Below are positions 18,369 through 49,148 of a DNA stretch of 64,000 bases, in pieces. The notes under the pieces were generated by a model. The model was not told the origin of the DNA, ran no database searches, and saw only the letters and a program-made list of their open reading frames with translations. The translations under genes and the position numbers were made by a program. The stretch is taken from NCBI GenBank assembly GCA_963817915.1, contig CAWFQL010000006.1, positions 32,001 to 96,000 of the forward strand, in the 5' to 3' direction. Position 1 is the stretch's first letter; each line of letters begins with the position of its first letter. This DNA is from an uncultured candidate division Zixibacteria bacterium (GTDB taxonomy: Bacteria > Zixibacteria > MSB-5A5 > UBA10806).

Positions 18369-21244
18369 TATGATTTTTCCTTCTTCGCGCTATTCGATTT
18401 GGCGCTGAGCCAGCTATCAATGGTTTTAACTATCTCGTCGACACTACCCGGCTCTTATTTTTTTCCCGCCGACCGAATTTAAAAATATTCTCCCGAACGA
18501 GCTTTTTTCCAATCTGCTATCGAGAGCCACCACACATCCACTATCATTGGCAGTCCGAATTAATCGCCCGAATCCCTTGCCTGAATTTCACCACCGCCTC
18601 CGGCAATGACAGCATCGCGAAGGCGCTTCCGCCCTCTCGTTCGATTTTATCCAGATTCGCCTTGAACCAGGGACGATCGGGCACCGTGAACGGCAATTTG
18701 AACAATACCAAAAGCTCCAATAGTTCCCCCGGCAGATCGACACCTTCCCAGAATGTGTCTGTGCCGAAAAGCACGGCTCGTTTGGCGGCCTTGAAACGAC
18801 TTAATATCCTTTGGGAATTGTGCGAGCCATCTTGCGAAAATAGCTCAATGCCATTCTCGCTAAGTTCTTCTCTCAGGCTTTCGGTCGCGTTCTTCAATGA
18901 TCTATATGATGTAAATAAGACCATCGATTTTTTGGCCTTGGAGCATAATATTTTGCCCAATGATTCGATGGCGATATCTTCGAATGATTTTTCTTTCGGC
19001 GATGGCAGATATCCCGCCGATATTACGGCAACCTCGGAATCAATATCAAACGGCGAATCGAGACTTATCGACAGCACTCTTTCCTTCGAGGCTAAATCGA
19101 GCCCCAGACGTTGCCTGATATAATCGAAGTTTTTATTTACGGTCAATGTCGCCGAAGTGAATATGGCAGTTTTCAGATGATCGTAGAATTTTTTATCAAG
19201 TAATTTGCCGACCTCAAGGGGCGCGGACATTATCCGCGGTGAATGTCTCGGCGATGATGGCTTTTCGATCCAATATACATATTCGTTATTATCCGCAAAT
19301 AAAAGATCGTTGGCGGTCGCGTGAAACGTCTTGATATCCGATACAAAAGCGCCCGAGTCTGGAAATTAATTCATGCTTTTTGGGGATATCATTTGATTCG
19401 CCCAATGATTCAAGAAGCTTCTCCAGCCGCTCTAATAATTTGGCCAGGTCGCCGATGAATTCATCCCGCTCGGGAAATTTGCAGAGATTGGTTTCGCTGG
19501 TATAGGGAATTTCACGGGATTCGGTATTTGAATAAGATGATTTAATGGCTTCAGACAATTTTTCGAAAAACCGTCCGGCTGTATGGGTGACAGCCGTAAT
19601 AGAATCGATAACCGAATCGGTATCGGCGACAAGTTCCAGATTGCCCATGCCATGAAATACAATGGCGGATTTGAGATTGATCAAAAATCCGGTCTGTGTC
19701 GGCCGCGATGAATACATATCAGATAGCAGACCATCGAGATTCCGCCGGTCGAAAGAACTGCCCAGATATGAAGCCGCTACTTTCTCCAGATTATGGGCTT
19801 CGTCGAAAATTATATTGCCGGAATTAATCACCATTTCGCCGCCCGATGAAAAATCCGCGAAGGTCAGGTAATGATTGACTACTGTCACCTGGGCGGTCTG
19901 AGCTTCCTTTTTGATACGAAGCAGAAAACATTTATCGGCGTATTGACATCCCTGACCCAGACAGAAGCTTCCCTCGCATGAGATTCGGCTCCAGAGATAA
20001 TAATTTCCCGCGGGATTGAAGCCATTGCATTCGGAGATATCGCCGGTTTTGGTTTTATTCACCCACAATGTCAAACTTGCCAGTGCCTCCCGGTCCTGCC
20101 TGGCGAATGATGCCTCAGCTTCTACGAGGAGCTCATGAAATTTATAAAGACATACATAATTTCCTCTACCCTTGAGCAACGCCGCCTTGAATTGATATCC
20201 GACCGCTTTTTGGATTTGCGGAATATCTTTATAGAAAAGCTGTGATTGCAGGCTCTTGGTCTGGGTCGAGATAATTACATGCTCCCTATTTTGCGATGCC
20301 CACCACGACGCAGGCAAAAGATACGCTATCGATTTACCAACTCCGGTCGGAGCCTCAGCCAGTAGAAATTCGGAACGATTGAACGCGGCGGCGATATTGA
20401 CCGCCATATCTTTTTGCTGAGGGCGATACTCATACGGGGCTATCGACTTTGATAATATTCCGCCCGGCAGGAAATGATTTTCGACAGCCGCCAGATCGAC
20501 AGGGATAAAATCATCGTATTTTTCAGGCGGCGATTGGCCTATAATATTTTCCGGATATAGATCATCGATCGATTCGATAATATCAATTTTTTCATCGGCA
20601 TTAATGAGAAGCGATTTTTCCTCGATATTGAGCGGGGCAATCCCTTCCAACGATTGATAGAAATCTTTTATATACTCCGAGCCGAGCAAAAGGCGGCCGA
20701 CAGTATCTTTCGAAGGTGTAGGCAATGATGCCAGAAATCCGATTAATTTAAGATATATCGCTGAAGTCGCCAGAGCGTCATCGAGCGAGCGATGAGCACG
20801 CTTTCGTTTGATGACGAAATAATCGGAGAGACTTCTCAGACTGTAGCGCGGCAATCTCGGATACAGAATCCTGGCAAGAACTCCCGTATCCATTACGCGA
20901 GCCTCGTATTTTAAAGCTTTCTGTTTGGTTAGATGAGGCTTTAGAAATCCCAAATCGAATGCCACATTGTGACCGACCAGCCAGGGAGCTTTGTCAAGTA
21001 TCTTGAGAAATTCGTCGAGAGCATCGTCAATAGAAGGCGAATCCTCAACCATAGCATCATTGATACCGGTAAGCGCGGTAATCTCCGGCGGAATCTCAGA
21101 GCCGGGATTAATCAGCATTGAATATTGCTCGACGATGACGCCGTTTTCATAGCGGACAGCGCCTAATTCGATTATCTCACAGACTTTCGGATCGAGTCCT
21201 GTGGTCTCGAAATCTATAGCGACAAAATTATCGAATCTGCTCAT
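18368..21244 (-). CDS. dinG: DinG family helicase with N-terminal DEDDh 3'-5' exonuclease, at least three frameshifts
   Basis: IDFETTGL, HRSLDDA, EAPTGVGKS, FeS cysteines, DEAH, TSATL, FWEGVDLPG; QGFGRLIR in a shifted frame; reconstructed stop overlaps the hutH ATG. Confidence 0.9.
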
Positions 21245-32231: not shown

Positions 32232-32994
32232 CTAAAACTTATACCCCAATCCGAATTTCAGCGAAATACCGCTGAGGTTGACATCCATGCGATCCTGTAC
32301 AACGCCGTGGTCAATTCGCCATTCACCGGAAACTCGCATATATCGGAATTCGCTATTCAAAAATATCCTGGAGCCTAATGGCGTTTCAAATCCCGCAAGT
32401 ATATGAGTTTCGACAGCATAATCTCTGGCATATTTTGCCAGGGGAACTCTCGGACTTCGCTGGTAATAGTTGTCAAGAAAAGCTCCGGTTACAAAGGCCG
32501 CCTTCCATGTCGCGATATAGACCCCCGTGCCGATTCCGAAGTACGGCATTAATTTCGAACCCGAATTTCTATGATGATAAATAATGCTGAAATCTACTGG
32601 AATAATTTCTAAACCATTTTTGTAATATTGGTATCCATTTGATGTCATAATATGATCGTTTCTGAAACCTGATTCAATCCTCATTTCGAAATTCGAAATA
32701 TAATAGCCTAGATATCCGCCAATGACGTACGATCCGCTCGTTCTATCCGAGTTTCCAAAATAAATATACTTCTCTTCATTTTGATTATTCAGCGGGGCGA
32801 ACATGCCGCCCTGCATGCCGAACGTAAAATGAGCTTGCGCCGGAAGCCGCGAATATTGTCGCAATTATTAATATCATTGAGCAGTAAAGTAAAACCCTGT
32901 TTGCCGTGTTGGCAGGTCTCCGTACCTGCCACGGCCAGGCATCTGGTCGGGTGCGGAGACCCGACCACACACTATTATTCTTATTATTTCTCAT
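32232..32994 (-). CDS. Outer-membrane beta-barrel paralog 7, with in-frame REP insertion and one frameshift near 32840
   Basis: ATG 32994 with GAGGGG RBS; removing one base gives IFAASAQAHFTFG, matching the neighbour's FANSAQAHFTFG; ends KFGLGYKF. Confidence 0.8.
32906..32970. repeat. Double-hairpin REP family copy (GTGGCAGGTCTCCG.ACCTGCCAC / GTCGGG..CGGAGACCCGAC)
   Basis: Other copies at 37446-37511, 59768-59833, 59884-59949, 61832-61897, 61985-62050. Confidence 0.9.
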
Positions 32995-33005
32995 CTTATC
33001 CCCTC

Positions 33006-33701
33006 TCAGAAATTATATCCAAATCCGAATTTTATTGATGTTCCGCCGAGGCCATTCTTATTTCGATCTTGATAGGCGGTGCCATTCCAAACATCATTTT
33101 TTGTCAGCCAACTTTTATATATATGAGAATGTTTCAATTCGCCGCTGAAGTAGAATTTTGAACTAATCGGCATTTGAAAACCCGCAATAAAATTGGCTCC
33201 GACGGGATAGGAAATGCTTTTGGTTTTCCAGTTTGTGCCGTCGATATCGCTACGCTCTCGTTTCCAGGACGCTTGATTGATACCTGCCCCAACTCCAACA
33301 TAAGGCTCAATATTCTTATTTCGAATTCTTATATGATAGATAGCATTGAAGTCGAGCGTGATAACCTTAAATTCGTCCTCGGTATAATTGTAGATTGTAT
33401 TGACACTACTGGAAACAGTATTTTTCATTCCGCTTCCGATCCTTAATTCAAAAGCCGAAATACGATATCCCAAAAATCCCGCAATTTCATAGGTATTGCC
33501 GAATACATTCCGTGATTCCAACGGGGGCAGATTGGGAGGTATAACCCATTGGTTAACCGGCCTTTGGTCAACCTTTTGATTGTTTGGGGCAAAAATTCCG
33601 CCCTGCAAGCCGAATGTAAAATGAGCCTGTGCGGAATTCGCGAATAGGAGTGAGACTAGCATAAACGCCAAGCAATAAAAAAATATCCTCTTATTTTTCA
33701 T
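33006..33701 (-). CDS. Outer-membrane beta-barrel paralog 6
   Basis: Signal peptide, FGLQGGIFAP, PYVGVGAG, GGTSIKFGFGYNF. Confidence 0.85.
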   Translation of the reverse strand: MKNKRIFFYCLAFMLVSLLFANSAQAHFTFGLQGGIFAPNNQKVDQRPVNQWVIPPNLPPLESRNVFGNTYEIAGFLGYRISAFELRIGSGMKNTVSSSVNTIYNYTEDEFKVITLDFNAIYHIRIRNKNIEPYVGVGAGINQASWKRERSDIDGTNWKTKSISYPVGANFIAGFQMPISSKFYFSGELKHSHIYKSWLTKNDVWNGTAYQDRNKNGLGGTSIKFGFGYNF

Positions 33702-33714
33702 CTATAAACTCCCT

Positions 33715-34389
33715 TTAGAAACGGCGTCCCAATCCTAATCTCAATGATGCTCCGCCGATGCTGATATTATTGGCCCGTTCACGAATGATGTTATCAGCTA
33801 TTTCTAATTTCCAATCGCTTGAAATATAACTATATCCAAATTCGCTGCTGAGATAGAAATTGTGGTTGAGAGGAAATTCACACCCCGCCAGGAAATGAAT
33901 ACCTATCGGATAAGTGGTACCTTTCAAAATAGTAGCGCCTTCGTAATATTGGTCAAGGAAGTCCCGCGATTCTGCTTTCCAATTCGCCACATTGAGTCCA
34001 GTACCAAAGCCAAGATAGGGCCGATAGTTTTTATTCTGTAATTTCATATGATAGATAAAACTGAGATCAAAAGAGACTACTTGAAGAATATTTCTTTGAA
34101 AATTCGTATATGAATTTCTCAGCTTCTTTTCCGTAACACTTTGCCTTGTGGCCGATTTAATTCTAATCTCAAAATCATTAATATAATATCCGCAATATCC
34201 CCCAAGTTCAAATGCTCTTCCAAACCCTCCGGTCCAACTTTCGACTTGATCCTGAATTGGCCAATTTTGCGGCATAAACATCCCGCCCTGCAAGCCGACT
34301 TCGAAGCGGCTGGGACCGGCAATGGCGAATGATGGCAAAGACGCAATTATTGCCGCACAGAATAATAATGATGCTATTCGTTTCATCAT
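33715..34389 (-). CDS. Outer-membrane beta-barrel paralog 5
   Basis: ATG 34389 with AAGGAG; GLQGGMFMP, PYLGFGTG, GGASLRLGLGRRF. Confidence 0.85.
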   Translation of the reverse strand: MMKRIASLLFCAAIIASLPSFAIAGPSRFEVGLQGGMFMPQNWPIQDQVESWTGGFGRAFELGGYCGYYINDFEIRIKSATRQSVTEKKLRNSYTNFQRNILQVVSFDLSFIYHMKLQNKNYRPYLGFGTGLNVANWKAESRDFLDQYYEGATILKGTTYPIGIHFLAGCEFPLNHNFYLSSEFGYSYISSDWKLEIADNIIRERANNISIGGASLRLGLGRRF

Positions 34390-34399
34390 ACTCCTTGAA

Positions 34400-35122
34400 T
34401 CAGAACCTGTATCCAATCCCGAATCGCATTGAGGTGCCGCCAATAGTAATTTTTATTCGATCTCGAACGGTATATAGGTCACCGCCCCATGGAGCAGGTT
34501 GAACCGTATATTTTATCTGCCAGTTTGCCGATACTCTGGTAAATTTAATATCTCCACTCAAAAATATTTTGGAAACCAAATTCCATTCGGCTCCGGCAAT
34601 TAAATGAGCCCCAATCGCCTTGTCCTCGTACGATTGGGCTGCCACTGGGTCAATGACCTGTAAAAAATCGCCATGGGGATCATTTTGCAAACTTTTGATA
34701 ATCCCGGTATTCCATTTTACCCAATAGATCCCTGCCCCGATTCCGATATAAGGCTCAATCTTCCCGATAAAATATTTGGAGTGGTAAATCGCGCTCAACT
34801 CAAAAGGAATAATTTTAAAAGTATTTAGTGATCGAGTATTATTCCATATTTCCGCCTGGAATTTATCTCTCCTGTATCCCGACTCTAATCGCATTTCTAT
34901 ATCAGAAAAATAATATCCAAGATAACCGCTGATATCATCTGTACTTCCCAAACCGTTCCAGTTTCCGAAAATAGATAGCTGATTATCGGCCTGGTCATTT
35001 TGCGGCATAAACATCCCGCCCTGCAAGCCGATTACGAAGCGGCTCGGGCCGGAAATCGCTAATGATGGCATAGACGCAATTATTGCCGCACAAATTAATA
35101 ATGATGCTATCCGTTTCATCAT
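34400..35122 (-). CDS. Outer-membrane beta-barrel paralog 4
   Basis: ATG 35122; GLQGGMFMP, PYIGIGAG, GGTSMRFGIGYRF. Confidence 0.85.
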   Translation of the reverse strand: MMKRIASLLICAAIIASMPSLAISGPSRFVIGLQGGMFMPQNDQADNQLSIFGNWNGLGSTDDISGYLGYYFSDIEMRLESGYRRDKFQAEIWNNTRSLNTFKIIPFELSAIYHSKYFIGKIEPYIGIGAGIYWVKWNTGIIKSLQNDPHGDFLQVIDPVAAQSYEDKAIGAHLIAGAEWNLVSKIFLSGDIKFTRVSANWQIKYTVQPAPWGGDLYTVRDRIKITIGGTSMRFGIGYRF

Positions 35123-35132
35123 ACCTCTTGAA

Positions 35133-35858
35133 TCAGAACCTGTATCCAATCCCGAATCGCATTGAGGTGCCGCCGAGACTGACTCGAATCGGCTTTCCGT
35201 AATCGTCTATTTTGCCATTATCGTCTTTGAAACTCCAGCTGCTCGAAATATAACTATACTTGATTTCGCCGCTGAAGTAAAGCCTCTGATTTACCGGAAC
35301 CTCGCATCCCGCTCTAATATGGACTCCCAATGGCTGGGAATTGCCTTTTACCTTTTGATTTATAAAGTCTTCAGCGTGCGGATATGAAGGATCGTTGATA
35401 TCCCCGTAATTTGGATTCGCATATGATAAATTATGTTGCCACGACGCAAAATTTATCCCGGTTCCGAATCCGAGATAAGGAATAATTTTGTTATTTGAAG
35501 TATTAAAGTGGCAAATAAGGCTGAGATCGATCGAAGTTACCTGAAGTCTATCCTTTCCATCACGCACAAATGAATTAAAATGAGAGTAATCAGATTTAGA
35601 ATTGGCCCATTTCTGAGCGGCCTCTAATCTTAATTCAAAATCGGAAATATTATAGCCAAGATAACCATCCAATTCATATGATCTACCGAAACCGCTCCAA
35701 TAATCCAGATAACCTGACATCCCTTGAATTGCCCAGTTCTTCGGCGAAAATAGACCACCTTGCAATCCGAATGTATAATTACCTGGCTTCGAATTCGCGA
35801 ATGAGGGAAGGATAATAACTATCGTCAAACAATATATTAATAATTTGCTTCTTTTCAT
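35133..35858 (-). CDS. Outer-membrane beta-barrel paralog 3
   Basis: ATG 35858; FGLQGGLFSP, PYLGFGTG, GGTSMRFGIGYRF. Confidence 0.85.
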   Translation of the reverse strand: MKRSKLLIYCLTIVIILPSFANSKPGNYTFGLQGGLFSPKNWAIQGMSGYLDYWSGFGRSYELDGYLGYNISDFELRLEAAQKWANSKSDYSHFNSFVRDGKDRLQVTSIDLSLICHFNTSNNKIIPYLGFGTGINFASWQHNLSYANPNYGDINDPSYPHAEDFINQKVKGNSQPLGVHIRAGCEVPVNQRLYFSGEIKYSYISSSWSFKDDNGKIDDYGKPIRVSLGGTSMRFGIGYRF

Positions 35859-35871
35859 TCCTTCTCCAATA

Positions 35872-36510
35872 TCAGAGCTTATACCCAATCCCAAATTTCA
35901 ATGATGTGCCGCCCAAGCCGAAAACTTTTCCGCCATCGTAGCTATGAGTGCTATCTCTGAATCTTATATAGCTATAACAAAGCTCGCCACTAAAAAATAA
36001 GCTCTTGTTCATGCTGATATCAAAACCACCCAAAATGTGGAAACCTTTCGGAAAATGCGATTTGGCCGCCGTCAAATTACGCCACATGTCCTGCTGATTT
36101 CCATCGGGAATAATTCCGCTGACGCCCAATCCTAAATAGGGGACCCATTTTGGATTCATCATTCGAAAATGATAAATTGCGCTTAAATTCAATGTAATTA
36201 ATTGATAATGTCCTTCACCACTTAGGCGATACCCAAATTGGTTATAAAGCCTAACAAAGGTATCATCCTTTCTCAGGAATGCTGACGCCCTTACCTCTAT
36301 GTCACTTTCCCTGCATCCAAAATATAGTCCATACTCATAAGTGCCGCTGAAATCTTGCCCAAGATTGGAATAATCTGACGCGGCCCAATTCGGCGGAGCA
36401 AAAAAGCCGCCTTGAACTCCAAATGTGAACGATCGATCCCCGGCGATTACAGTCGAAGCAAGGAATAAAATCGGAAACAAAAGCCAATATATCGGTTTGA
36501 CTAATTTCAT
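35872..36510 (-). CDS. Outer-membrane beta-barrel paralog 2
   Basis: FGVQGGFFAP, PYLGLG, GGTSLKFGIGYKL. Confidence 0.85.
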   Translation of the reverse strand: MKLVKPIYWLLFPILFLASTVIAGDRSFTFGVQGGFFAPPNWAASDYSNLGQDFSGTYEYGLYFGCRESDIEVRASAFLRKDDTFVRLYNQFGYRLSGEGHYQLITLNLSAIYHFRMMNPKWVPYLGLGVSGIIPDGNQQDMWRNLTAAKSHFPKGFHILGGFDISMNKSLFFSGELCYSYIRFRDSTHSYDGGKVFGLGGTSLKFGIGYKL

Positions 36511-36523
36511 TTATTTTCCCTTC

Positions 36524-37198
36524 TCAGAATCTTCGTCCAATCCCGATTTTCAGAGATGTGCCTCCCAGGCTGACATTATCCAATTTTTTCAATATGGAGC
36601 CGGATGAATATCGAGAATTGAATTTCCAGGTAGTGGAAACATAGCTGTATTTGATTTCTCCATTTATAAATACATTGTCATTAATCGGAAATTCGATTCC
36701 TCCGAGAAAATGAATATCCAAGGGGTATGAAGTACTCTTTGTAGAATTATTATCATAATAATAATCGTGATATTTGGGCTTCCATTGAGCGAAATTGATA
36801 CCGGTTCCAATGCCTAAATAGGGGGCTACTTTCGAGTATTGATATTTTATATGATATATATAGCTAAAATCAAAAGAGACTACCAGAAGATCATTCCTAT
36901 CTATTTTAGGTCCCCATGGTATCTCTGTTGAGAAAATAGATCGACTCTGCCTCGTGCCAATTTCGAACCTTAATTCTGAATCGGAAAAATAATGGCCCAT
37001 ATACATTGCGAAATCGAAGGCGCTGGTATAGCCTGTCCAGACGCCAGGATATCTCAGCTCTCCCTGCATTGGCCAATTTTGAGGCATAAAAATTCCGGCC
37101 TGCAAACCGAAAGTATTTCGGTTATTATTTGCGCTGGCGCCAAATGTCAGCAATATCATGAGCGCGAGAGTCCCCGTTATAACCTTAAATGCCTTCAT
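36524..37198 (-). CDS. Outer-membrane beta-barrel paralog 1
   Basis: FGLQAGIFMP, PYLGIGTG, GGTSLKIGIGRRF. Confidence 0.85.
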   Translation of the reverse strand: MKAFKVITGTLALMILLTFGASANNNRNTFGLQAGIFMPQNWPMQGELRYPGVWTGYTSAFDFAMYMGHYFSDSELRFEIGTRQSRSIFSTEIPWGPKIDRNDLLVVSFDFSYIYHIKYQYSKVAPYLGIGTGINFAQWKPKYHDYYYDNNSTKSTSYPLDIHFLGGIEFPINDNVFINGEIKYSYVSTTWKFNSRYSSGSILKKLDNVSLGGTSLKIGIGRRF

Positions 37199-39531: not shown

Positions 39532-39924
39532 CTATTGATTGGGCTTGGAGGCGGGAGCCATCGAAGTCTCCCCTGATTTTCTCGATACCGCCGCACGGGC
39601 TGCTCGGTCGGCGACCTCTTTGCCTACCCCGGTGATCTCGATAATCTTGTCAACAGCCCTATCGAGCCAGACCGACCAATGGGAATTGGGGAATTTCAGC
39701 TTGAAATAATCGGTGACATCATCGGCTATAACCAGAATATACTCAGCGACTTCCCTGTTTTGCTTGACCTGCAGTAACGGCAGGATTTCCTTCTTAATCA
39801 GAAATCCGAGATAGACCATTAAAATTGCCCCTAAAGCCGCCAGCGATTTTTCAGTCAATAGGCCGCCAAGCCATGAAAATATGCTGGCGTTCAAATGGGT
39901 CGGATAAAATGCGAATAAAAACAT
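39532..39924 (-). CDS. Holin-like membrane protein (N-terminal TM plus amphipathic helices)
   Basis: LAALGAILMVYLGFLIKK TM segment, helical tail ending ARAAV; last gene of the phage-like module; LL-H holin-like architecture is an inference. Confidence 0.5.
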   Translation of the reverse strand: MFLFAFYPTHLNASIFSWLGGLLTEKSLAALGAILMVYLGFLIKKEILPLLQVKQNREVAEYILVIADDVTDYFKLKFPNSHWSVWLDRAVDKIIEITGVGKEVADRAARAAVSRKSGETSMAPASKPNQ

Positions 39925-39948
39925 GATAAATCTCCTTATGGTTTGAAA

Positions 39949-41412
39949 TTATTGTAATTGCCAACTTGATAAATCTGGCACGGCCACTTTCGATTTGTAG
40001 ATCACTCCCGATGGATATTCGATCGTGAAGAGATATTTGGACGAGGTTTTAGAAAGTAGAGAATTGGGGATTAAATCGATTTGCCAGTAACCATGAATAT
40101 CTGTCTGGGTAGTTTTCTTGAATGGCGTGATTATAACATCATCGTATTTGACCGGCTGATATTCCGATGGTATCTCGACAGTTACAACGATATTTGCCAG
40201 GCTATCGCCAACTATATCATATACTCGGCCATAAACACGGCACAGGTTCGGCGATGGTGGATCGCCGGGATTGAAATCCGTAATCCAGAGGATATCAGTC
40301 CCTCCACCGCTAACAACGTTGATAGTATCCAGATCGGTTTGGATGTAATTATTTGCCCGCAATGCCACTACATAGCTGCCGGGATCGAGCTCGGTTATTA
40401 GCCGTCCATTTGAATCTGTCTGAAGGCCGGGCACCTTTGTGGAAGTCTGAGCGAGATTTCTGACAGTAACAGAAACGCCTTCAAGCGCGGTGGTATCATT
40501 ATCAAAAACATAAAGAGTCTCGGCCTCGCTTCCGCTGCCGCTAATTGAAAGCGCCGCGATATCATCCTTGATATTTTGGTTATCGCCGTTCCCACCGGCA
40601 TAGGCCCCAATTTTAGAATGCAGATCGATTGACGACCCTTTCCATCCGAGCGAAGCCATTATTGAGTCAACCCTGGATGTCAATGATGGCGGGATCGTGG
40701 CCGTGCCGCCGTGATTATCGAGCATGGTTTTGAAATTCGGCTTCACATCCAAGGAATCTAAGCTCGCTGAATCTGGATTCGACAAAACGGCGTTCCTGGC
40801 GTCGAATGTCAATTTGTCGGTTTTCGTTTTTATTGCTGTAAGATCTGAATTGGAATTGATGTTGACGTTGTTAATTACTCCGCCGACATTGCCGGTTGTC
40901 ATAAAGACCTGTGAGTCAGCAAGCGAATAACCAGATTTGTCATAAACATATTTCGATCTGAGATAAGACGCTCCGGTCGATCCGCTGTCCGATGTCGCCA
41001 GAAAATCCTCTATCGGATCGGAATTGACATAATAGCTGCCATAATGCATTTGATGGGTGTCGGTGCCGTTATTGTTATCTACCAATAACGCCCACCAGGT
41101 GTAAGCCCCAAGGTCGCCATTGGAATTTGACGCCTTAAGGCGATATTCAAACATCAATGTTCGTGGATAAGTTGAATTCAGATCATAGCCGGAAGCCCCC
41201 GTGAGCGTATCGATATTAAAATCGGTTCCGCCGTAAGCCTGAACAATATAGGCCGTATCCCATGTCGTATACTGCCGCCCAGAGCTGTCGATAAGGCAGA
41301 ATTGTATAACGAGGGTATCGTTTTTCTCGCCCGAGCCATTATCGAAAATAAGCCCTGCCCTGGCTGAACAAGCTGAAAGCCAGATTATAATTGTAATCAA
41401 TAATTTATTCAT
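39949..41412 (-). CDS. Signal-peptide protein with C-terminal transthyretin/carboxypeptidase-regulatory-like domains, virion-protein-like
   Basis: MNKLLITIIIWLSACSARA; QTDSNGR..LDPGSY and TQTDIHGYWQIDLIPN motifs. Confidence 0.6.
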   Translation of the reverse strand: MNKLLITIIIWLSACSARAGLIFDNGSGEKNDTLVIQFCLIDSSGRQYTTWDTAYIVQAYGGTDFNIDTLTGASGYDLNSTYPRTLMFEYRLKASNSNGDLGAYTWWALLVDNNNGTDTHQMHYGSYYVNSDPIEDFLATSDSGSTGASYLRSKYVYDKSGYSLADSQVFMTTGNVGGVINNVNINSNSDLTAIKTKTDKLTFDARNAVLSNPDSASLDSLDVKPNFKTMLDNHGGTATIPPSLTSRVDSIMASLGWKGSSIDLHSKIGAYAGGNGDNQNIKDDIAALSISGSGSEAETLYVFDNDTTALEGVSVTVRNLAQTSTKVPGLQTDSNGRLITELDPGSYVVALRANNYIQTDLDTINVVSGGGTDILWITDFNPGDPPSPNLCRVYGRVYDIVGDSLANIVVTVEIPSEYQPVKYDDVIITPFKKTTQTDIHGYWQIDLIPNSLLSKTSSKYLFTIEYPSGVIYKSKVAVPDLSSWQLQ

Positions 41413-42658
41413 TGAAATCTCCTATTACTAATTTCCTCCTTCTGAATCCTGAGCAAGTGGCAGATGAATATTTCATATAGATGCTATATTTCCTATTGCC
41501 CCCGGCGCCTGTGCCCATCGTAATATCGAAAGGAAGGGGGTCTGCAATATCTGTCTGGCTCGAGTCCGAGCCTGCGGTTCCGTTATCATAATAAAGATAA
41601 AGATTCAAATCTTTGGTGGAGCATTGGAGTGTGAGCCAGATTGTATCCTGACAAACCAGAGACTTACTAACCAATGAAAACCCCTGCCATGATGCCGATG
41701 TATTTGAAATAGTCCTCACCCCAGAACTGTCGGCAAAAGTCGCATTTACAGATCCGCCTTTATAGGCTGCGGCTGAAGCGCTGGGGTATGGAGTAGAGCT
41801 TGCCCGCACGTAAGCGAAAATCGAATCTGCGATAGCTGTCTCAGGCAGAATAAACCGGCTTGCCATTTTACCATCCGCCTTGAAGCTCTGAGAAGATGCG
41901 CCTGCTGATGTATAACCGACTGTAGGGTCGATCGTAACAGGAAAAACTGCCTGATTCAAAAAGCCGGCGGGGACATCAATGGAAAGGATGTTATTGGATA
42001 TTTTCAGATCGCACCAGGCGGAATTTCCAATTGAGTCGAATGCCTTCGGCCTGTAGATGTGAAAGGCTTTTGCATAAATCTTACGATCTTCTGAATTTGA
42101 GGTCGAATAGGCCGCATAACTCCCCACTACGCTATCGGGTCGATTGGCTCCACGAGCTATTTCGTATAGAGTCAGCGGCGGCTGATAAAATAATTCCATG
42201 TTGGACACATCAATTGGAAAATTAAATGAATTGCAGCCTGGGAGCGAATTTAAAACGATTTCCCATTCAAATTCGACAGATGATTTCCAATACCATCGAT
42301 AATAGCCGCCATTAAATTTCGAAATGATCGTGTCTAACGACACATTTAGCTGCTCCAATACTGAATTTAATGCGGGCAGAGTCTGTAGTGGCTTTGCAGT
42401 GAATTCGTGCGGCAATTTTATTTCGAAAAACGAATTATCCGGCCCATTGATGGAAAATAATTGCGGCGCCGATGATGATGCGTCATTGATTGATATGGAC
42501 ATTCCTTTTACTGAATCGCCATATGAATAACAATTTCTATCACCTTCAGATGTTTTTTGCCAATGATTGCTTAGCGGACTTTCCACACCTGCGTAAAGAT
42601 GTGCACTTCGAATGAGGATTAGGCTGACAACACCAATAACAAGTCTGTTTAATTGCAC
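41405..42658 (-). CDS. Signal-peptide protein with a phage-structural-like domain
   Basis: GTG 42658 with AAGGAG RBS (the track's longer N-terminus overlaps the next gene); FYQPPLT..RPDSVVGSYA..KAFHIYRPK..FPVTIDPT. Confidence 0.6.
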   Translation of the reverse strand: MQLNRLVIGVVSLILIRSAHLYAGVESPLSNHWQKTSEGDRNCYSYGDSVKGMSISINDASSSAPQLFSINGPDNSFFEIKLPHEFTAKPLQTLPALNSVLEQLNVSLDTIISKFNGGYYRWYWKSSVEFEWEIVLNSLPGCNSFNFPIDVSNMELFYQPPLTLYEIARGANRPDSVVGSYAAYSTSNSEDRKIYAKAFHIYRPKAFDSIGNSAWCDLKISNNILSIDVPAGFLNQAVFPVTIDPTVGYTSAGASSQSFKADGKMASRFILPETAIADSIFAYVRASSTPYPSASAAAYKGGSVNATFADSSGVRTISNTSASWQGFSLVSKSLVCQDTIWLTLQCSTKDLNLYLYYDNGTAGSDSSQTDIADPLPFDITMGTGAGGNRKYSIYMKYSSATCSGFRRRKLVIGDFNE

Positions 42659-42671
42659 GTTATTATCTCCT

Positions 42672-43496
42672 TCACGCGGAAGCCGGGCTATTGAATGATC
42701 CCAGGCGGCCGGCAAATTTGGAGAGGATATTGTACGCTTCTTTCTTGTACATGTCGGAGAGAGCGGTCCAGGATCGTGCCTCGTTGCCGCCATCGGTCTT
42801 GCCTCTCGATGGCGAAATAGATTCCATGGCGCGGATTCTGCAGATAATCGCGACCGACATGTAAGTCTCTGCGGTAACAAGCAGTCGGTCAGCCGATTCC
42901 CGATAAACCTCATCGATAAACGAGAGCACCTGATCATTGGCCTCGGCAATCGCGTTTTCAATAGAAGCATCATCAAGATTTCCATATTCGGTTGTGTAAT
43001 CGACCTGAACCCATTGGCCGGATTCTATCGCTCCGCCCGAACGGCGCTTAAGTGTTCCTGCCTGATATTCTATGTCATAATCGCTTCCGCGCTGGTAAAT
43101 TCGGTAGTTAAGATACCAGACGACTATCGATCCAGCCGCCGGAATTGAGCCTGATGCGATTCGCATAATCGTCCCCTGAATGTAGTCGATTTGAAAATCG
43201 ATATTTTCGATATAGATTTTCGAAAGAGAGCTATTATTGGCGGCGACCACCGTATTTGGAATAATCTGATTATGCGACAGCGCAACAGAATCGGATGAAG
43301 CAAAACTGATATTCTCTTCATTCGGTTCATTCTGCTCTCTGGCCTTGACTCGTTCAGATTCCGGCAAAATCATCCGCTTTTCCAGTTGGCTGGAGTCATT
43401 GGCATTCAATTGGATTTTTTCATCATAAATTTTGGCGGAACCGATATGATGGTCGAGGATATGTTTTTTGACTATTTCCTTGGTTGTAAATGGCAT
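42672..43496 (-). CDS. Putative head-tail adaptor/head-completion protein with inserted beta repeats
   Basis: MPFTT.E.V start; helical DDASIENAIAEA...YKKEAYNIL; two Y..G.DY.I.Y..G...R repeats; located after the capsid gene. Confidence 0.5.
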   Translation of the reverse strand: MPFTTKEIVKKHILDHHIGSAKIYDEKIQLNANDSSQLEKRMILPESERVKAREQNEPNEENISFASSDSVALSHNQIIPNTVVAANNSSLSKIYIENIDFQIDYIQGTIMRIASGSIPAAGSIVVWYLNYRIYQRGSDYDIEYQAGTLKRRSGGAIESGQWVQVDYTTEYGNLDDASIENAIAEANDQVLSFIDEVYRESADRLLVTAETYMSVAIICRIRAMESISPSRGKTDGGNEARSWTALSDMYKKEAYNILSKFAGRLGSFNSPASA

Positions 43497-43867
43497 CAGT
43501 TCATCTCCAATATTAAGAGGTCAACAAGCGAATTGGATGGTTCTTCTTTCTTGCGAGCGATACGGAATGAGGTAGGTCCGACAGCGCCGAGGATAAAAGC
43601 CCCGATCTGATTTTTGGGAATAATAATTACGAGGGGTTTATTGATTGTCGTTGGCAACTGATTGCCGCGATGGTCTAGCAGGTCGGCAAAATCAACGATT
43701 TGGGAATTGCCGCCGGAATATTCATGCATGAATACGACTCGATTCTCCCCAGATTTATATTCAGTCAGCATCAGGTCGCCATCGAGAGAACCGGCGTCAC
43801 CCCATACGGTATAGTCCCTGATCAACCATTTGCGGTTGCCGGTAAGATAGTCCAATGTTATATTCAT
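43496..43867 (-). CDS. Hypothetical beta-rich protein of the capsid module
   Basis: Translationally coupled on both sides. Confidence 0.7.
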   Translation of the reverse strand: MNITLDYLTGNRKWLIRDYTVWGDAGSLDGDLMLTEYKSGENRVVFMHEYSGGNSQIVDFADLLDHRGNQLPTTINKPLVIIIPKNQIGAFILGAVGPTSFRIARKKEEPSNSLVDLLILEMN

Positions 43868-45303
43868 ACGCCCTCCCTCACCAGAACAAGATCATCGGCC
43901 TTAACTCCAGCGACGATCTGAGAGCCGACCGGTTCAGCGGAAAATCCCAATGTCACGCGCGCCCGCACCCAATAATTATTGGAGTCATCGACCATTCCGA
44001 TCTGCCAATCTGACGGTGTCGATTCGCCATCCTGCCAGAAATAGACAAGAGCATCTAGCGAATCGAAATTGTAGCTTCCGGAAGATGGAATAAATTCCAC
44101 CCAATTCGAGCCGTTAAAATATTCCCAGACTACTGTCCCCGAGACTCCCGCGGTCGAAAGCAGAATGGCCGCGCTGAAGAATTTCGATTGTTTTCCGAAA
44201 TAGATACAATCGTCAATCGAATCGATTAGCGCGGATGATTCGGAGTGAAAAATATCAGCCAGAGTCGGGTTGGCGGCAACGGATGACCTATCTTGGAATT
44301 TTGTCGTACCGAGATTATTGTATAGGATTATCTTATCGAATGCGCCTATCGCGGGAGTATAGTTTGAAAGCGAAAATGATTCGCCGGATTTACCCGCGTA
44401 TCTGGGGATATAATAATTTTCCGCGATAAGCCTGGCATAGAAAATATGCGGAATATTATTCACATATCCGATTTGGGGCGATCTTGCCTGGACAGTCTCG
44501 ACTTCATATAGCCCACTCCAAAAGGAACCGTCATTCTCCTTGAAATAAACCTTATTTTCACCTGAGACTATAAAAACAACGCCAAGTTTCTTTTCAGGGC
44601 TCGGCGCGATATCAAAATCATCATCGATATAATTAGCGCTGTGGATTGCGGTTTCCGCTCCCCATGTAGGACCGGAAAGATCGCAGATTCGATAATTCAA
44701 ATCGGATCTATTGACACAATAAACGGCGTATAGCTTTGACGATATCTGGCAGGCGCCGACATAAGCGTTGACAGCGTAGCCCGAGGAAAGCGCGGTGCCA
44801 AGATCGGCGTCGCCAGTACCCCAGGTCGCGCCATCATCCGTTGACGATTTGACTCGTACATAATAATTGGAATCGAGCGAGGTTCGATGATTAACGAAAA
44901 AACACCAGAGCTTGCTATCGCTGTCTTTGATGACTGTTGGATTGTAGTTGTTATCGACAGCGACTACATTCACTTCGGAACCTGCTGTCCAAACCCCTGC
45001 ACCAAACAACAGCTTCACGAATTTAATTTTCCGGTCGGTATTGGTATAAACCAGATAGATATTGCCTGCCGCATCCATATGCGCCCCGAATGGCGAATCA
45101 TAAACGTCGGTAACAATGGCCTGCGGCGATGACCATGATTGATAGGGGTAGTCGGAATAGACGAGAGCGATCGCAGTCGCCGAGCTCATATACAATGCCG
45201 CAGTCCTCCCCTTGAATACACCCGATGGTATTCGAAGGAGCTTCCGTTGGCAGGGCGACCCGGTAGGCCGGGTCGCTGTCGATGTTGTCAAAAGCTTATG
45301 CAT
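43864..45303 (-). CDS. Beta-propeller (BNR/Asp-box) protein with virion-like C-terminal domain
   Basis: SSTDDGATW Asp-box, W-spaced blades, WEYFNGSNW and YWVRARV motifs. Confidence 0.6.
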   Translation of the reverse strand: MHKLLTTSTATRPTGSPCQRKLLRIPSGVFKGRTAALYMSSATAIALVYSDYPYQSWSSPQAIVTDVYDSPFGAHMDAAGNIYLVYTNTDRKIKFVKLLFGAGVWTAGSEVNVVAVDNNYNPTVIKDSDSKLWCFFVNHRTSLDSNYYVRVKSSTDDGATWGTGDADLGTALSSGYAVNAYVGACQISSKLYAVYCVNRSDLNYRICDLSGPTWGAETAIHSANYIDDDFDIAPSPEKKLGVVFIVSGENKVYFKENDGSFWSGLYEVETVQARSPQIGYVNNIPHIFYARLIAENYYIPRYAGKSGESFSLSNYTPAIGAFDKIILYNNLGTTKFQDRSSVAANPTLADIFHSESSALIDSIDDCIYFGKQSKFFSAAILLSTAGVSGTVVWEYFNGSNWVEFIPSSGSYNFDSLDALVYFWQDGESTPSDWQIGMVDDSNNYWVRARVTLGFSAEPVGSQIVAGVKADDLVLVREGV

Positions 45304-45315
45304 CTATTCTGCTTT

Positions 45316-46422
45316 CTACCAGACCGAATCCAGTATCAATGATGCTTCTTTGATGAATTTGGCGTAGGAGAGGGATTCTGATATAACCGCCTCCTCGATT
45401 TTCTGCTCGATAACCTTATCGTATTCAATCATCAATGGCTGGCTGATGACCTCCTCGATCGCGAATCGATTGTCGAGGCCGATCACGTAATCGGTCGGAA
45501 CTTCGTCGCAACGAATCAATGATGCCCCGAGCGGAGATGTTATCTCGCCATTGGTCTGGAAATTGAATCCGATCAACGGATCCTTGAATTCGGCCAAAGT
45601 CAGAATGCTTCTGATTTTGTCTTTATGGCAGATCAGGATATTGGGTTGATATGGATAGAATTCGCTCCAGAATCTGACCAGGTCATCATAATCAAGAACA
45701 CTGGTGACATCGGTATTGATTACCTGGGCGGAGTTGGAATTGCCGTCGCCGTTGATAATAGTATTGACAATCATGGCGATCTTGTCAGATTGCAGACGAT
45801 AACCGATGTACCACAAAAGCACTTTGAATTGCGCCATCGAACGATAGCGAAGCGCCTTGTAGGATACCTTCAACGTCAACCCGTAATCCTGGATCGTGAT
45901 CGTATTGTTTTGTTCGGTGACATTGACCGATGGAATCATGGCCGCCTCGCCGACCGGCCTGAGCGACAGAGCCTTATCCCCGACACCATAGCCGACATGG
46001 ATCGGTGAATAACGAGACGATGATACATTGGAGCTCGATGACAAGAGCCGTCCCAATTCAGGGCGCATCTCCATGCCTCGTCTGATTTCGCGAAGCATGA
46101 ATTCAGGCATTAATGCCGGCGCGCCGCGATAAAATAACTCGACTGTAACGGGGTTCTTGCCGCCGGTGCGAAGCCCCTTCATTGCTAATTGCCGTTCGAA
46201 AGCGTCGAGCGGCGAGCCGGCCGGGCTGGGATCGAATTCGGGCAGTTCCAGAAGCTCAGTAAGCGATATTCCGCGAGCCTGGGCTTCGAGATATGTATCG
46301 CGTGTGACATCTATCTTCTTCGCGCGAGAGAAATCGACCGATTTCCCTCCGCTGTTTTTGGATTCGCCGGCTGTAGCCATGGCGATATTGAAATCAGATG
46401 ATAACAGTTTTTCAAATTCCAT
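45316..46422 (-). CDS. Phage-type major capsid protein (HK97-fold predicted)
   Basis: 368 aa; LDAFERQL, PEFMLREIRRG, VGEAAMIP, YG..L.VSY.ALR, IINGDGNSNSA, LDNRFAIEEV...IEYDKVIEQ; follows protease and decoration genes. Confidence 0.82.
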   Translation of the reverse strand: MEFEKLLSSDFNIAMATAGESKNSGGKSVDFSRAKKIDVTRDTYLEAQARGISLTELLELPEFDPSPAGSPLDAFERQLAMKGLRTGGKNPVTVELFYRGAPALMPEFMLREIRRGMEMRPELGRLLSSSSNVSSSRYSPIHVGYGVGDKALSLRPVGEAAMIPSVNVTEQNNTITIQDYGLTLKVSYKALRYRSMAQFKVLLWYIGYRLQSDKIAMIVNTIINGDGNSNSAQVINTDVTSVLDYDDLVRFWSEFYPYQPNILICHKDKIRSILTLAEFKDPLIGFNFQTNGEITSPLGASLIRCDEVPTDYVIGLDNRFAIEEVISQPLMIEYDKVIEQKIEEAVISESLSYAKFIKEASLILDSVW

Positions 46423-46456
46423 TATTTTCTCCTTAATGGTTTAAAATTGATATTGA

Positions 46457-46879
46457 TTAATTGAGGATAAGAGTCACATCCGATGTACCATTGACGTCGA
46501 TAACAGTCCCGCGGGCGACATTGCCGCCTGCCGGATCATAACCGGCCAAAACGGGCGCCTGCCTGACAGCACCCGTGCCGCTGACAACCACACGATTGCC
46601 AATTGCGGGTGTAGTAGCCGCTGAAGGCAACTTACAAATTCCACCGATTTGTACAGTGGCTACTCGCTTCCCGTTATCAGCATCGGTGAGTGAAAGATCG
46701 ATAAGCTTGCCCAACAACATTCCGCCGCTGGCTCCTAGCCCGACTTCGTAATTGGCTATGATGGTCACAGCCTTTCCGATATCGGTATCCCTGAGGTCAT
46801 CGACCCCCGCGGTCTGGTGCACCTTGAATGTCGCGGTTAAAAATCCGATTGTTTCCAGGTTTTGATCTCTTACTGCCAT
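46457..46879 (-). CDS. Capsid decoration/cement-like protein
   Basis: 140 aa Gly/Val-rich; DIGKAVT, GKL, ATVQ.GG, G.VRQA; immediately upstream of the capsid gene. Confidence 0.65.
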   Translation of the reverse strand: MAVRDQNLETIGFLTATFKVHQTAGVDDLRDTDIGKAVTIIANYEVGLGASGGMLLGKLIDLSLTDADNGKRVATVQIGGICKLPSAATTPAIGNRVVVSGTGAVRQAPVLAGYDPAGGNVARGTVIDVNGTSDVTLILN

Positions 46880-46917
46880 GAATTCTCCTTTTCTGTTATA
46901 AATTTAGGGTGATATTT

Positions 46918-47163
46918 TTAGCGATAATCTTCTACTGCCAGCAAGGGCAGACGAATTGAACTTTCAGATCCTTTGGTTATCCCTCTGGACTTTTCTTTGG
47001 TCAATTCGGGTCTGAATGATTTTTCTTTTATGTCATTCAGAATGGCAGGCAGAGAATCTAATTTAGATATTATCGCATCCATGTCGAGCTTGCCAGATGA
47101 AAAGCCGTCGGTCAATCCACTTTTGATTTCATTTAGCCTCGTTAAGATTTCATCAAATTCCAA
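46918..47163 (-). CDS. Small helical protein, possibly a scaffold fragment
   Basis: TTG start with AAAGGAG RBS; coiled-coil-like; lies between protease and decoration genes. Confidence 0.55.
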   Translation of the reverse strand: MEFDEILTRLNEIKSGLTDGFSSGKLDMDAIISKLDSLPAILNDIKEKSFRPELTKEKSRGITKGSESSIRLPLLAVEDYR

Positions 47164-47194
47164 TCGATACTCCTTTCATTTGAATAGTTTTTGT

Positions 47195-47500
47195 TCAGTG
47201 ATTTGCTTCGCTTTTTAGAATCGCCTTGTCTTCTTTTGCCAGCACAGTCTCGATAGCAGTCAGCTTACCGATAACCTCATTCTTGAATGTCGAAAGGTCT
47301 TCCTTGGTGGCGAATCGTTCATTGATGACAGATTCCAATCTTGCCAGTCTGACATTCATTTCAGTCACATAACGTTCTTCTGCTTTCCCGGCGAGCTCGA
47401 CCCGCAATCCGGTGTAAATCGCGAAATATCCCGACAAGGCCGCGGCCAGCGAAATCGCCAATGTTATCAAATACTTTATCAATGAGTCTTTCTCGGGCAT
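47195..47500 (-). CDS. Single-TM coiled-coil protein (holin/XhlA-like architecture)
   Basis: TM LITLAISLAAALSGYFAIY then coiled coil with ATKEDL; GAGG RBS. Confidence 0.6.
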   Translation of the reverse strand: MPEKDSLIKYLITLAISLAAALSGYFAIYTGLRVELAGKAEERYVTEMNVRLARLESVINERFATKEDLSTFKNEVIGKLTAIETVLAKEDKAILKSEANH

Positions 47501-47515
47501 ATAAGCCTCACTTCG

Positions 47516-48334
47516 TTAATTAGACTTAATAATCAGGAATGATTCGCTGTTATAATTTGCTATGGCGGCTTGATAGTTTGGTGGATATGCTATCAGCTTC
47601 GCGGTTTTGTTTTCGGCTTTCAGCGGTAGAATGCGAACCAACCTTTTCGATAAATAGGTGAGCGGAATTTCGACAAATCTTGAAATACCGTCGATTTCAA
47701 TTTCGATCTTGTTATCATCCTCGCGAGATAATTTGTCGGTTATGAATGTGCCCTTGACCGAGCCGCGATAGACTAATGATGTTTCCAATACTTGCGTAAT
47801 ACCATTATAGATGAAATGCGCTTTCTCGGCGGATTGGCCTGACGAATAATCGATATCATGCGGGCAACCGCGCATATCCTGGCCGCAGATTGAGCATTCG
47901 GGGAAATTATATGAGAATGATATCGAGCATTCCTTGAGAACACCGGAATCGATTTTGGTCAATAGATCGTCGGGCTCATCGGCTTTAGTTGTCGGCCAAT
48001 AGAAATAGGCTTTGAGCCATTGAACACCATTTTTCTCTTCGATCTCTGCATGAAATGTGCGTGCCAAAGGCGCCTGCGAATGATCATGACCGACTAATAC
48101 GGGCGTATCAATAATCAGGCTTTTCAATTTCGATAAATCCTCTTTTCGAAATCGGCCGCCATGGGAATTGACAAGATTATTGACAACATACATGGCGCGG
48201 ATATTGACATTTTTCGGAGCTACGAATCGCGGCGGCTTGATATTATCGTTAATCAATGACGCCAGATAATTGAGTCTGACATTCGGGCTATCCAATGTGA
48301 GCTCACAAGTAAGCATTTCAGTTAATTTTTCCAT
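47516..48334 (-). CDS. Prohead (capsid maturation) protease-like protein with CxxC...CxH zinc motif
   Basis: ATG 48334 with GGAGGA; PVLVGHDH, IDSGVLKECSISF, CSICGQDMRGCPH, LETSLV. Confidence 0.72.
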   Translation of the reverse strand: MEKLTEMLTCELTLDSPNVRLNYLASLINDNIKPPRFVAPKNVNIRAMYVVNNLVNSHGGRFRKEDLSKLKSLIIDTPVLVGHDHSQAPLARTFHAEIEEKNGVQWLKAYFYWPTTKADEPDDLLTKIDSGVLKECSISFSYNFPECSICGQDMRGCPHDIDYSSGQSAEKAHFIYNGITQVLETSLVYRGSVKGTFITDKLSREDDNKIEIEIDGISRFVEIPLTYLSKRLVRILPLKAENKTAKLIAYPPNYQAAIANYNSESFLIIKSN

Positions 48335-48421: not shown

Positions 48422-48545
48422 ATGCAATATGCGCATGAAATTGCATAAATAATTGACAAATAGTCAGGCAGCCGATGTCCATCATATTAAATATCAATGA
48501 GTTATGTGACTGTAAAAAAGAACTTACATCGGCACGGATATTGCA
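48422..48545 (+). promoter_or_regulatory. Sigma54 promoter with enhancer palindrome and IHF site
   Basis: ATGCAAT-N11-ATTGCAT (48422-48446); TATCAATGAGTTA matching IHF WATCAANNNNTTR (48492-48504); CGGCACG-GATA-TTGCA -24/-12 (48530-48545). Confidence 0.8.
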
Positions 48546-48555
48546 TTTTCTATGG

Positions 48556-48710
48556 TTTGCATGGGTGTTTAGATTTTAGATAGATTTCTCCGCTTAGTGC
48601 CCTCCCCGCCAAGCGAGAAACGCGCCAGTCCTAAGAGGAACGGTCCCCAATACGTTCCAATTGAAGGCCGGTCTTTCACTCCCTCCTTGAGATCGGTCTT
48701 CTTTTTTTTT
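48556..48710 (+). ncRNA. Candidate small RNA with three hairpins and C-rich loops
   Basis: Starts at the predicted sigma54 +1; hairpins 48585-48620, 48637-48658, 48663-48701; ends in a U9 tract; no credible ORF. Confidence 0.65.
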
Positions 48711-49148
48711 CGCATATATTTTTTCGATACCGCATCGTCGACATTCTCCATAAAGCCTGTCATTCCGGCCCCCGAGCCCGTCAAGGGCCGGGCCGTTGAC
48801 GGCCGGAATCCATCTTCTCTTGTGAGTGGCAGAAGCTCAAATTTATTCCGTTATCTGCCAAAGATTATCTAATTGCCCGATTTCCTTTTGGGATTATCTT
48901 ACGCGTCAAGCCTTGCCCGCCAAACAAACGGCGGATATACCCTGACCACAAAAAAAGCGGGATGCGGTCACGGCAAGCCGCGACTCGCAGGATTGGGACA
49001 GAGAATAATGATTGCGAAAATCTACATCTTAGTATATAATTATATTATATTAAGTATTATTGAAGGAGCCTGAGATGGCGGAAATCCGAATAGCTGGAAT
49101 TAGAATATTGCGTCATTCGCGATTCGCCTGAGATTAGCGAGGGAAGAA

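Follow-up and report, generated by a model that had tools for sequence, protein, structure and literature searches.

Qrr1-5, which act under LuxO, and MmgR are small RNAs (sRNAs) driven by sigma-54 and an activator, and both use Hfq. In the accessible part of its report, Dv_sRNA2 of Desulfovibrio is described as a further sigma-54/activator-driven sRNA (PMC3333781). Available excerpts on the cuckoo or alpha-r14 RNAs of Alphaproteobacteria (CcsR, NfeR1) describe two to four adjacent hairpins, each with CCUCCUCCC (PMC4615179, PMC10746234), and present NfeR1 as an Hfq-independent RNA that blocks ribosome-binding sites by pairing (PMC10746234). CJnc230 (FlmE) of Campylobacter jejuni, as portrayed in part of the published account, is RpoN-dependent, carries an anti-Shine-Dalgarno stretch, is processed from the flgE mRNA and controls flagellar genes (PMC11187230). 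For the PrsR regulon, the excerpted account gives a 17-nt motif ending in TTTACA that precedes PEP-CTERM genes (PMC1569441).

We analysed a locus within a 64,000-nucleotide stretch of DNA (the window) from an uncultured Zixibacteria bacterium, for which an initial annotation had proposed a small RNA under sigma-54/IHF control with three C-rich, anti-Shine-Dalgarno-like loops. Like the cuckoo RNAs as excerpted, the Zixibacteria RNA presents an anti-Shine-Dalgarno motif in hairpin loops on variable stems, but in place of several hairpins with CCUCCUCCC it has one universal loop, CCCUCCUU, located in the terminator. It belongs to a different phylum from NfeR1, has no Rfam match and bears a sigma-54 signature, which NfeR1 lacks. 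With CJnc230, compared by its partial description and with no sequence relation seen, it shares the combination of RpoN, an anti-Shine-Dalgarno stretch and a tie to a gene for an exported structure; the origin of CJnc230 from the 3' side of a gene resembles the 3' UTR element of family f9 described below, whereas the Zixibacteria RNA has its own enhancer and promoter. As with Qrr1-5, MmgR and Dv_sRNA2, a stand-alone small RNA would be the output of an enhancer-binding response regulator, but Hfq, which Qrr and MmgR use, was found in none of 41 genomes here (the search control was positive in 5 of 14), and the MmgR model, with its gathering score of 41, reached 13.1 bits. An enhancer and sigma-54 box before PEP-CTERM genes, together with an exosortase, recall the PrsR regulon; the enhancer here reads TGCA-N6-TGCA/TTCAC, however, and the PrsR account, in the part available, names no RNA member (PMC1569441). 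A CsrB/RsmZ-type sponge needs several GGA loops on the transcribed strand, whereas the plus strand here has C-rich loops. We found no description of the RNA in the main texts of the literature, although large screens for non-coding RNA motifs could list it in their supplements. The RNA is a new family of a known functional kind (NfeR1/cuckoo, CJnc230-like) without the membership features of those RNAs.

Structure and conservation of the RNA

Comparison of sequences among relatives established the conservation, promoter anatomy, strand, structure and independence of the unit, and we are highly confident that the RNA gene is real. The non-coding RNA is about 155 nt long and lies on the plus strand (48556–48710; both ends are predicted, with +1 at 48556), and its copies in relatives measure 111–189 nt. 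Its longest ATG-to-stop ORF has three codons, and no ORF is common to the copies compared from relatives. A 5' domain (48564–48626, plus strand) is closed by a short helix of GGUGU (48564–48568) with GCGCC (48622–48626) and encloses the first C-rich site (48600–48607). A middle hairpin (48637–48658, plus strand) with its loop at 48643–48652 follows, and the RNA ends in a terminator hairpin and U tract (48663–48710, plus strand), in which a 13-pair stem (48663–48701) presents a C-rich loop (48676–48688) and is followed by U9 (48702–48710). All three loops fold on the plus strand as the initial annotation drew them, but their presumed equivalence did not survive comparison. Conservation across all copies holds only for the third, a loop of 12–14 nt with a CCUCCUU seed; the first C-rich site is shared no further than the window's family and is absent from the sister family, and the middle hairpin recurs in relatives with a loop whose letters vary.

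CCUCCUU was invariant in 23 of 23 aligned copies and has the same letters as the 3' end of the genome's own 16S rRNA. Its predicted probability of being unpaired is 0.99 in the window's RNA and 0.81–1.0 in 21 of 23 copies (0.57–0.59 in two paralogues), and just 1 of 305 other terminator-like hairpins of the genome holds CCUCC in its loop. By alignment and predicted folding, the RNA has an accessible, conserved seed complementary to ribosome-binding sites.

An Rfam search and a covariance model, the follow-up that the initial annotation had suggested, bore the RNA out as a family of its own with a covarying stem. In Rfam 15, only a tRNA reached threshold in the window; the best matches in the RNA region scored 12–17 bits (E 2.6–8.1), and the loci of four relatives gave no match on the RNA. 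A covariance model trained on terminal hairpins, 15 from the order and two from family f4, recovered 25 copies in 23 of the 24 genomes of the order, 10 of the 25 lying outside the training set. Twenty-four copies scored above 40 bits and one syntenic copy 32.5, with the next match at 27.3. Across 150 genomes of the phylum outside the order, an f4 training sequence alone exceeded 35 bits; matches below that value were set aside as generic terminators, the two inspected both being without a promoter. Of 13 family relatives, 11 gave a BLAST match to the RNA, as did 1 of 10 genomes from the sister family, and no second copy was found in the window's own genome. A pattern scan of species genomes returned 17 records, among them seven titled Zixibacteria and five titled Ignavibacteria by their depositors, plus one Ruminococcaceae match that had neither promoter nor hairpin, and viral contigs yielded no pattern match. 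One genus holds diverged second copies off the cluster (L150, L153), with the loop GAGCAUCCUCCUU and intact promoters. Just beyond the RNA, the window carries a REP-like palindromic repeat (48755–48809), of which the genome has at least six further, nearly identical copies.

In the terminator stem, 303 of 312 cells were paired across 26 distinct hairpins, a count that leans high, partly by construction, because these hairpins were picked by a pattern that favours pairing; G-C/A-U and C-G/U-A swaps occur between copies. Covariation was 0.258, a value reached by none of 500 shuffles, and by three of five measures the structure in a plain MAFFT alignment surpassed every one of the 500 shuffles, the short alignment being weaker. 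In the 5' closing helix, 91.7% of cells were paired, with two-sided changes at one pair and one-sided changes at three (13 sequences), and RNAalifold did not recover this helix. Folding against shuffles gave z = −2.3 for the plus strand and z = +0.4 for the minus strand, and the terminator stems contained 61 G-U against 2 A-C oppositions. The promoter, the U tract and this G-U excess identify the plus strand as the transcribed one.

Promoter, enhancer and candidate activator

The palindrome, IHF consensus, −24/−12 box, loops, hairpin and U9 of the initial annotation were all found where it had placed them. The palindrome (48422–48446, plus strand), which it had put about 120 bp upstream of the predicted start, could be narrowed: the conserved part is its right half, a predicted enhancer or activator site (48431–48446, plus strand) about 100 bp before the GG of a sigma-54 −24/−12 promoter of the GG-N10-GC type (48530–48545, plus strand). 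Between the two lies an IHF-like bending site with the exact IHF consensus (48492–48504, plus strand). The enhancer follows the consensus TGCA-N6-T(G/T)CA; its GCA and T-C are invariant or nearly so in the promoters of 45 relatives, at a distance of 86–142 bp. These elements exceed chance expectation. Of 100 relaxed sigma-54 boxes in the 3.3-Mb genome, only that of the RNA locus is preceded, at 70 bases or less, by an exact IHF consensus, and with matrices trained on the 45 relatives' promoters, the window's own site left out, the RNA promoter ranked first of 43 combined promoter and enhancer matches genome-wide. An IHF-like site (at least 7 of 9 matches at −58 to −30) was present in 34 of the 45 relatives' promoters, compared with 11 of 45 in a control window.

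This architecture travels with the RNA. The sigma-54 box was present in all 23 copies of the order with upstream DNA (the other two begin at contig ends), the enhancer scored at least 7.8 in 21 of these 23, and promoter and enhancer accompany the RNA in relocated copies. Of 23 metagenome matches, three had too little upstream DNA, and 17 of the remaining 20 showed both box and enhancer. Present in the genome are rpoN, csrA and genes for a dozen intact enhancer-binding proteins, as well as one IHF-like and one HU-like gene, each scoring under its curated cut-off. With its conserved box, fitting enhancer distance, rpoN and activators, the RNA has the genomic features of a sigma-54-dependent sRNA. 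Comparison thus upheld the initial proposal of a separate, non-coding sigma-54/IHF-type unit with an exposed anti-Shine-Dalgarno loop. Nor is the RNA a leader of the gene at 49149, because it ends in a conserved terminator, its downstream neighbour differs between genomes and gene 49149 has sigma-70-like sites of its own.

The same enhancer was found at 7 of 38 strong intergenic sigma-54 boxes, compared with 1.5% of random intergenic positions. Apart from the RNA, these sites precede two PEP-CTERM genes, a subtilase, an LVIVD-type protein and two unknowns; the enhancer–promoter pair stands before two of the genome's three PEP-CTERM genes and several secreted enzymes, and one enhancer-bearing PEP-CTERM gene is divergent from the exosortase. 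Two related proteins of 126–161 aa are encoded behind sigma-54 boxes (G000:C12:680862 and C9:310643), the first of which has no Pfam match and also lies behind this enhancer.

The E. coli AtoC site, in the accessible part of its description, has the same form as the enhancer TGCA-N6-T(G/T)CA (PMC3118216). A candidate activator whose top-scoring match is AtoC (G000:C11:101898-103295; L209) is encoded in 47 of 48 genomes and a second activator (C9:235065-236480), equally widespread, in 48 of 48, so distribution singles out neither. In three genomes of other families, the ones looked at and chosen for being close, the AtoC-like activator lies 12–17 kb from the capsid cluster in a shared block. 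PrsR itself was rejected as the activator: its motif differs, and the best TIGR02915 score was 450.9 against a cut-off of 502.6, with AtoC scoring higher.

The RNA site beside the capsid cluster

The RNA is divergent from a capsid operon whose first gene is head-protease-like (47516–48334, minus strand; weak PHROG hits), with a start at 48334 rather than 48382 when aligned with relatives. The remaining operon (39532–47500, minus strand), comprising decoration, major capsid protein and other genes, is phylum-wide and separate from the RNA, and the major capsid protein occurs in 190 of 201 phylum genomes, nearly always singly. The ancestral position of the RNA is between the terminase end and the head protease, antisense to both, and the terminase ends convergently at the RNA hairpin in 10 genomes; in the window's genome, the packaging genes lie 31 kb from the RNA. 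Constant co-occurrence with the capsid module, a possibility raised by the initial annotation, was not borne out: 19 of 25 copies are linked (within about 3.5 kb) to protease and/or terminase, five are unlinked with their promoter intact, and one could not be judged. Elsewhere, the window holds seven tandem small outer-membrane-barrel-like genes of similar lengths (32232–37198) and three genes that look split across frames, possibly through sequencing errors (3614–5969, 17813–18241 and 18544–21244), which we take to be MutS2-like, histidine-ammonia-lyase-like and DinG-like, respectively.

Across the phylum, 56 of 60 further loci contained the protease, three of them too short, leaving 53 assessable loci; the same promoter and enhancer were found at the protease-side site in 40 and no promoter was called in 13. 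The 40 promoters drive a PEP-CTERM gene in 24 loci, a shorter ORF, mostly with the same leader type, in 13 and RNA only in three. In most other families, a PEP-CTERM gene is what the promoter at the RNA site controls. Under the same promoter and at the same site, family f4 carries a minimal RNA, about 70 nt long and with two C-rich loops (L055:2028-2097 and L068:2151-2223, both minus strand). Families f16 and f13 (L094, L103, L104, L077) have a sigma-54 unit that encodes only a PEP-CTERM-leader-like peptide of about 40 aa.

Family f9 shows, as the 3' UTR of its PEP-CTERM gene, a conserved and strongly covarying C-rich element, an analogous anti-Shine-Dalgarno element that comprises a C-rich single strand and a terminator with a C-rich loop, with 7 of 11 pairs compensatory (for example L072:865-959, minus strand, a candidate 3' UTR-derived sRNA). 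Of 54 f9 genomes, 39 contained it, compared with 3 of 96 other genomes, and 17 matches outside the training set, compared by coordinates, lie 3–8 kb upstream of the capsid gene. Cross-scores between this element and the RNA of the order reached at best 10.5–13.2 bits (E 0.12–0.52), a match weak enough that the two are analogous rather than demonstrably homologous.

The PEP-CTERM genes driven from this site in other families, the convergent terminase and an encoded csrA with a minus strand that reads GGA would fit a different account, in which the locus is a leftover promoter and bidirectional terminator after PEP-CTERM loss, or else a minus-strand CsrA sponge or small-ORF ribosome-binding site. 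We consider this very improbable, since three f2 genomes hold the PEP-CTERM gene and the RNA in tandem with the RNA under its own promoter, an arrangement that also led us to reject the RNA as a mere PEP-CTERM 3' UTR remnant. The loop is invariant even in relocated copies, and the G-U to A-C ratio favours the plus strand; moreover, most copies' hairpins have no start codon after the minus-strand AAGGAGG, and a 71-aa minus-strand ORF is absent from the relatives' ORF lists.

Predicted targets and mode of action

Gene starts (2855 genes) and export leaders were called with our own simple callers. The initial annotation had pointed to the neighbouring capsid-module genes as targets, a role as main targets that the ranking did not bear out: with the terminator loop as probe, 10 of 11 module genes ranked 373–1596 of 2855 or were no better in RNA-bearing genomes. 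The decoration, capsid, 101-aa, BNR, terminase and portal sites were ordinary and no better in RNA-bearing genomes, and the BNR gene was poorly matched at its true start. The exception is a 123-aa gene, which ranked 80 of 2855 and has a G-rich site in most relatives, although that site overlaps the coding end of the upstream gene. For the protease site, the f1 mean is about −15 kcal/mol, which places it in roughly the top tenth; in f2 this site is ordinary. A type I antitoxin role towards the 101-aa hydrophobic gene was rejected because the site of that gene is not complementary to the RNA.

Deep positional conservation nonetheless leaves room for control of the capsid cluster. The unit could be a switch for a domesticated capsid cluster that holds particle production down while the surface programme runs, acting through antisense sigma-54 transcription, an activator just upstream of the head operon and the loop on the protease or the 123-aa gene, all three together. 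Besides the sites of these two genes, the linkage of most copies to protease and/or terminase and the promoter and enhancer at the site in 40 of 53 further loci, often with the enhancer just about 50–130 bases from the protease start, speak for such a switch. We judge it unlikely, given the ordinary sites of the other module genes and of the f2 protease, the overlap at the 123-aa gene, the five copies relocated intact, an operon that persists in the 13 loci without a promoter call and the finding of no sigma-54 box before the portal gene in the window's genome.

The best complements of the RNA loop, (U/C)CAAGGAGGG, instead precede genes for exported proteins. The perfect complement, UCAAGGAGGG, lies before five genes here, all five with export leaders and including a TonB receptor (C17:437276), an outer-membrane barrel (C17:8226) and a C25 peptidase (C17:364506). 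Leaders were found in 12 of 15 genes with AAGGAGGG, compared with 34 of 72 with AAGGAGG plus another base (p = 0.025), and in 10 of 13 real genes bearing the site in family relatives, in motif tests that were picked after inspection of the data and among related genomes that are not independent. The letters CCUUGA of the f1 RNA are CCUUGG in family f2, and the base that would face the differing position shifts between the families in the direction expected from pairing: before ATG, its T:C ratio was 26:3 in f1, 16:12 in f2 and 50:30 outside the order, against 102:60 (f1) and 92:40 (f2) at control sites. The interaction (p = 0.004) involves kin that are not independent and is weakened because about half of the fetched pattern hits, and 4 of 12 in f2, were not real gene starts; the f2 excess of C alone was not significant (p = 0.27).

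The UCAAGGAGGG sites numbered 42 in 24 genomes with the RNA and 50 in 37 genomes without it, hardly an excess; target sites were mostly not kept across orthologues, leaders were found in only three of eight real f2 genes with CCAAGGAGGG, and the leader fraction in the top 100–200 predicted targets equalled that obtained with a 16S probe. CAAGGAGGG is carried by 3 of 36 sigma-54 genes against 3 of 1555, but a target enrichment among sigma-54 genes was rejected because their pairing energy was no better than that of other leader-bearing genes; no sigma-54 box was seen near the fetched sites in relatives. The best conserved target candidate encodes a protein without a Pfam match (G000:C12:323380-324573), with a site in about the top 5%, and its homologues in three f2 genomes (L339-L341) keep CCAAGGAGGG. 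Four f2 genomes (L203, L206, L243, L334) retain (T/C)CAAGGAGGG at the gene of an 87–91-aa membrane protein, which does not have it here.

The RNA likely acts in trans as an anti-Shine-Dalgarno RNA; exported proteins may be its main targets, a proposal that we put forward tentatively. Weak conservation of the predicted target sites, the failure to find Hfq and the conservation of a 5' helix and GCGCCAGUCC block for which no pairing role is obvious could alternatively mean that the RNA binds a protein, either a C-rich-loop binder or ribosomal protein S1 through mimicry of the 16S end, rather than mRNAs. Protein binding is quite improbable, given a seed exactly complementary to strong Shine-Dalgarno sites, a family-specific base shift that is mirrored in mRNA sites and the precedent of Hfq-independent anti-Shine-Dalgarno RNAs such as NfeR1, which act by pairing (PMC10746234).

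We favour, with moderate confidence, a sigma-54 RNA under an AtoC-like activator that would exert trans shut-off through (U/C)CAAGGAGGG-type ribosome-binding sites, probably of outer-membrane or secreted proteins; for its expression, activator, base-pairing and target class, we infer from sequence. An activator phosphorylated by some signal would bind the enhancer, an IHF-like protein would bend the DNA, and sigma-54 would transcribe the RNA together with PEP-CTERM surface proteins. The open terminator loop and two weak closing pairs would then pair with ribosome-binding sites that are strong and G-rich, and translation would be shut off for exported proteins other than these in the main. The activator would run an envelope programme in which one surface set is turned on and another off, with the RNA doing the repressing. 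A broader scenario, which we think rather doubtful, is that the antisense sigma-54 unit between the packaging and head halves is a phylum-old switch coupling the surface coat to particle production, with the RNA having begun as the 3' UTR of a PEP-CTERM mRNA, as it would still be in f9, and having become independent by promoter duplication in this order.

Within the literature searched, this is the first base-pairing-type sRNA family for the uncultured, Hfq-less Zixibacteria phylum. Its promoter is defined and its enhancer motif is phylum-wide, and both a candidate activator and a small regulon go with it. As a conserved regulatory unit within a phylum-wide domesticated capsid cluster, it offers a way into the question of when the cluster comes into use. 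The arrangements found at this single site, which range from a PEP-CTERM gene with an anti-Shine-Dalgarno 3' UTR through gene plus separate RNA to RNA alone and a 70-nt minimal RNA, provide a natural test case for the origin of sRNAs from 3' UTRs.
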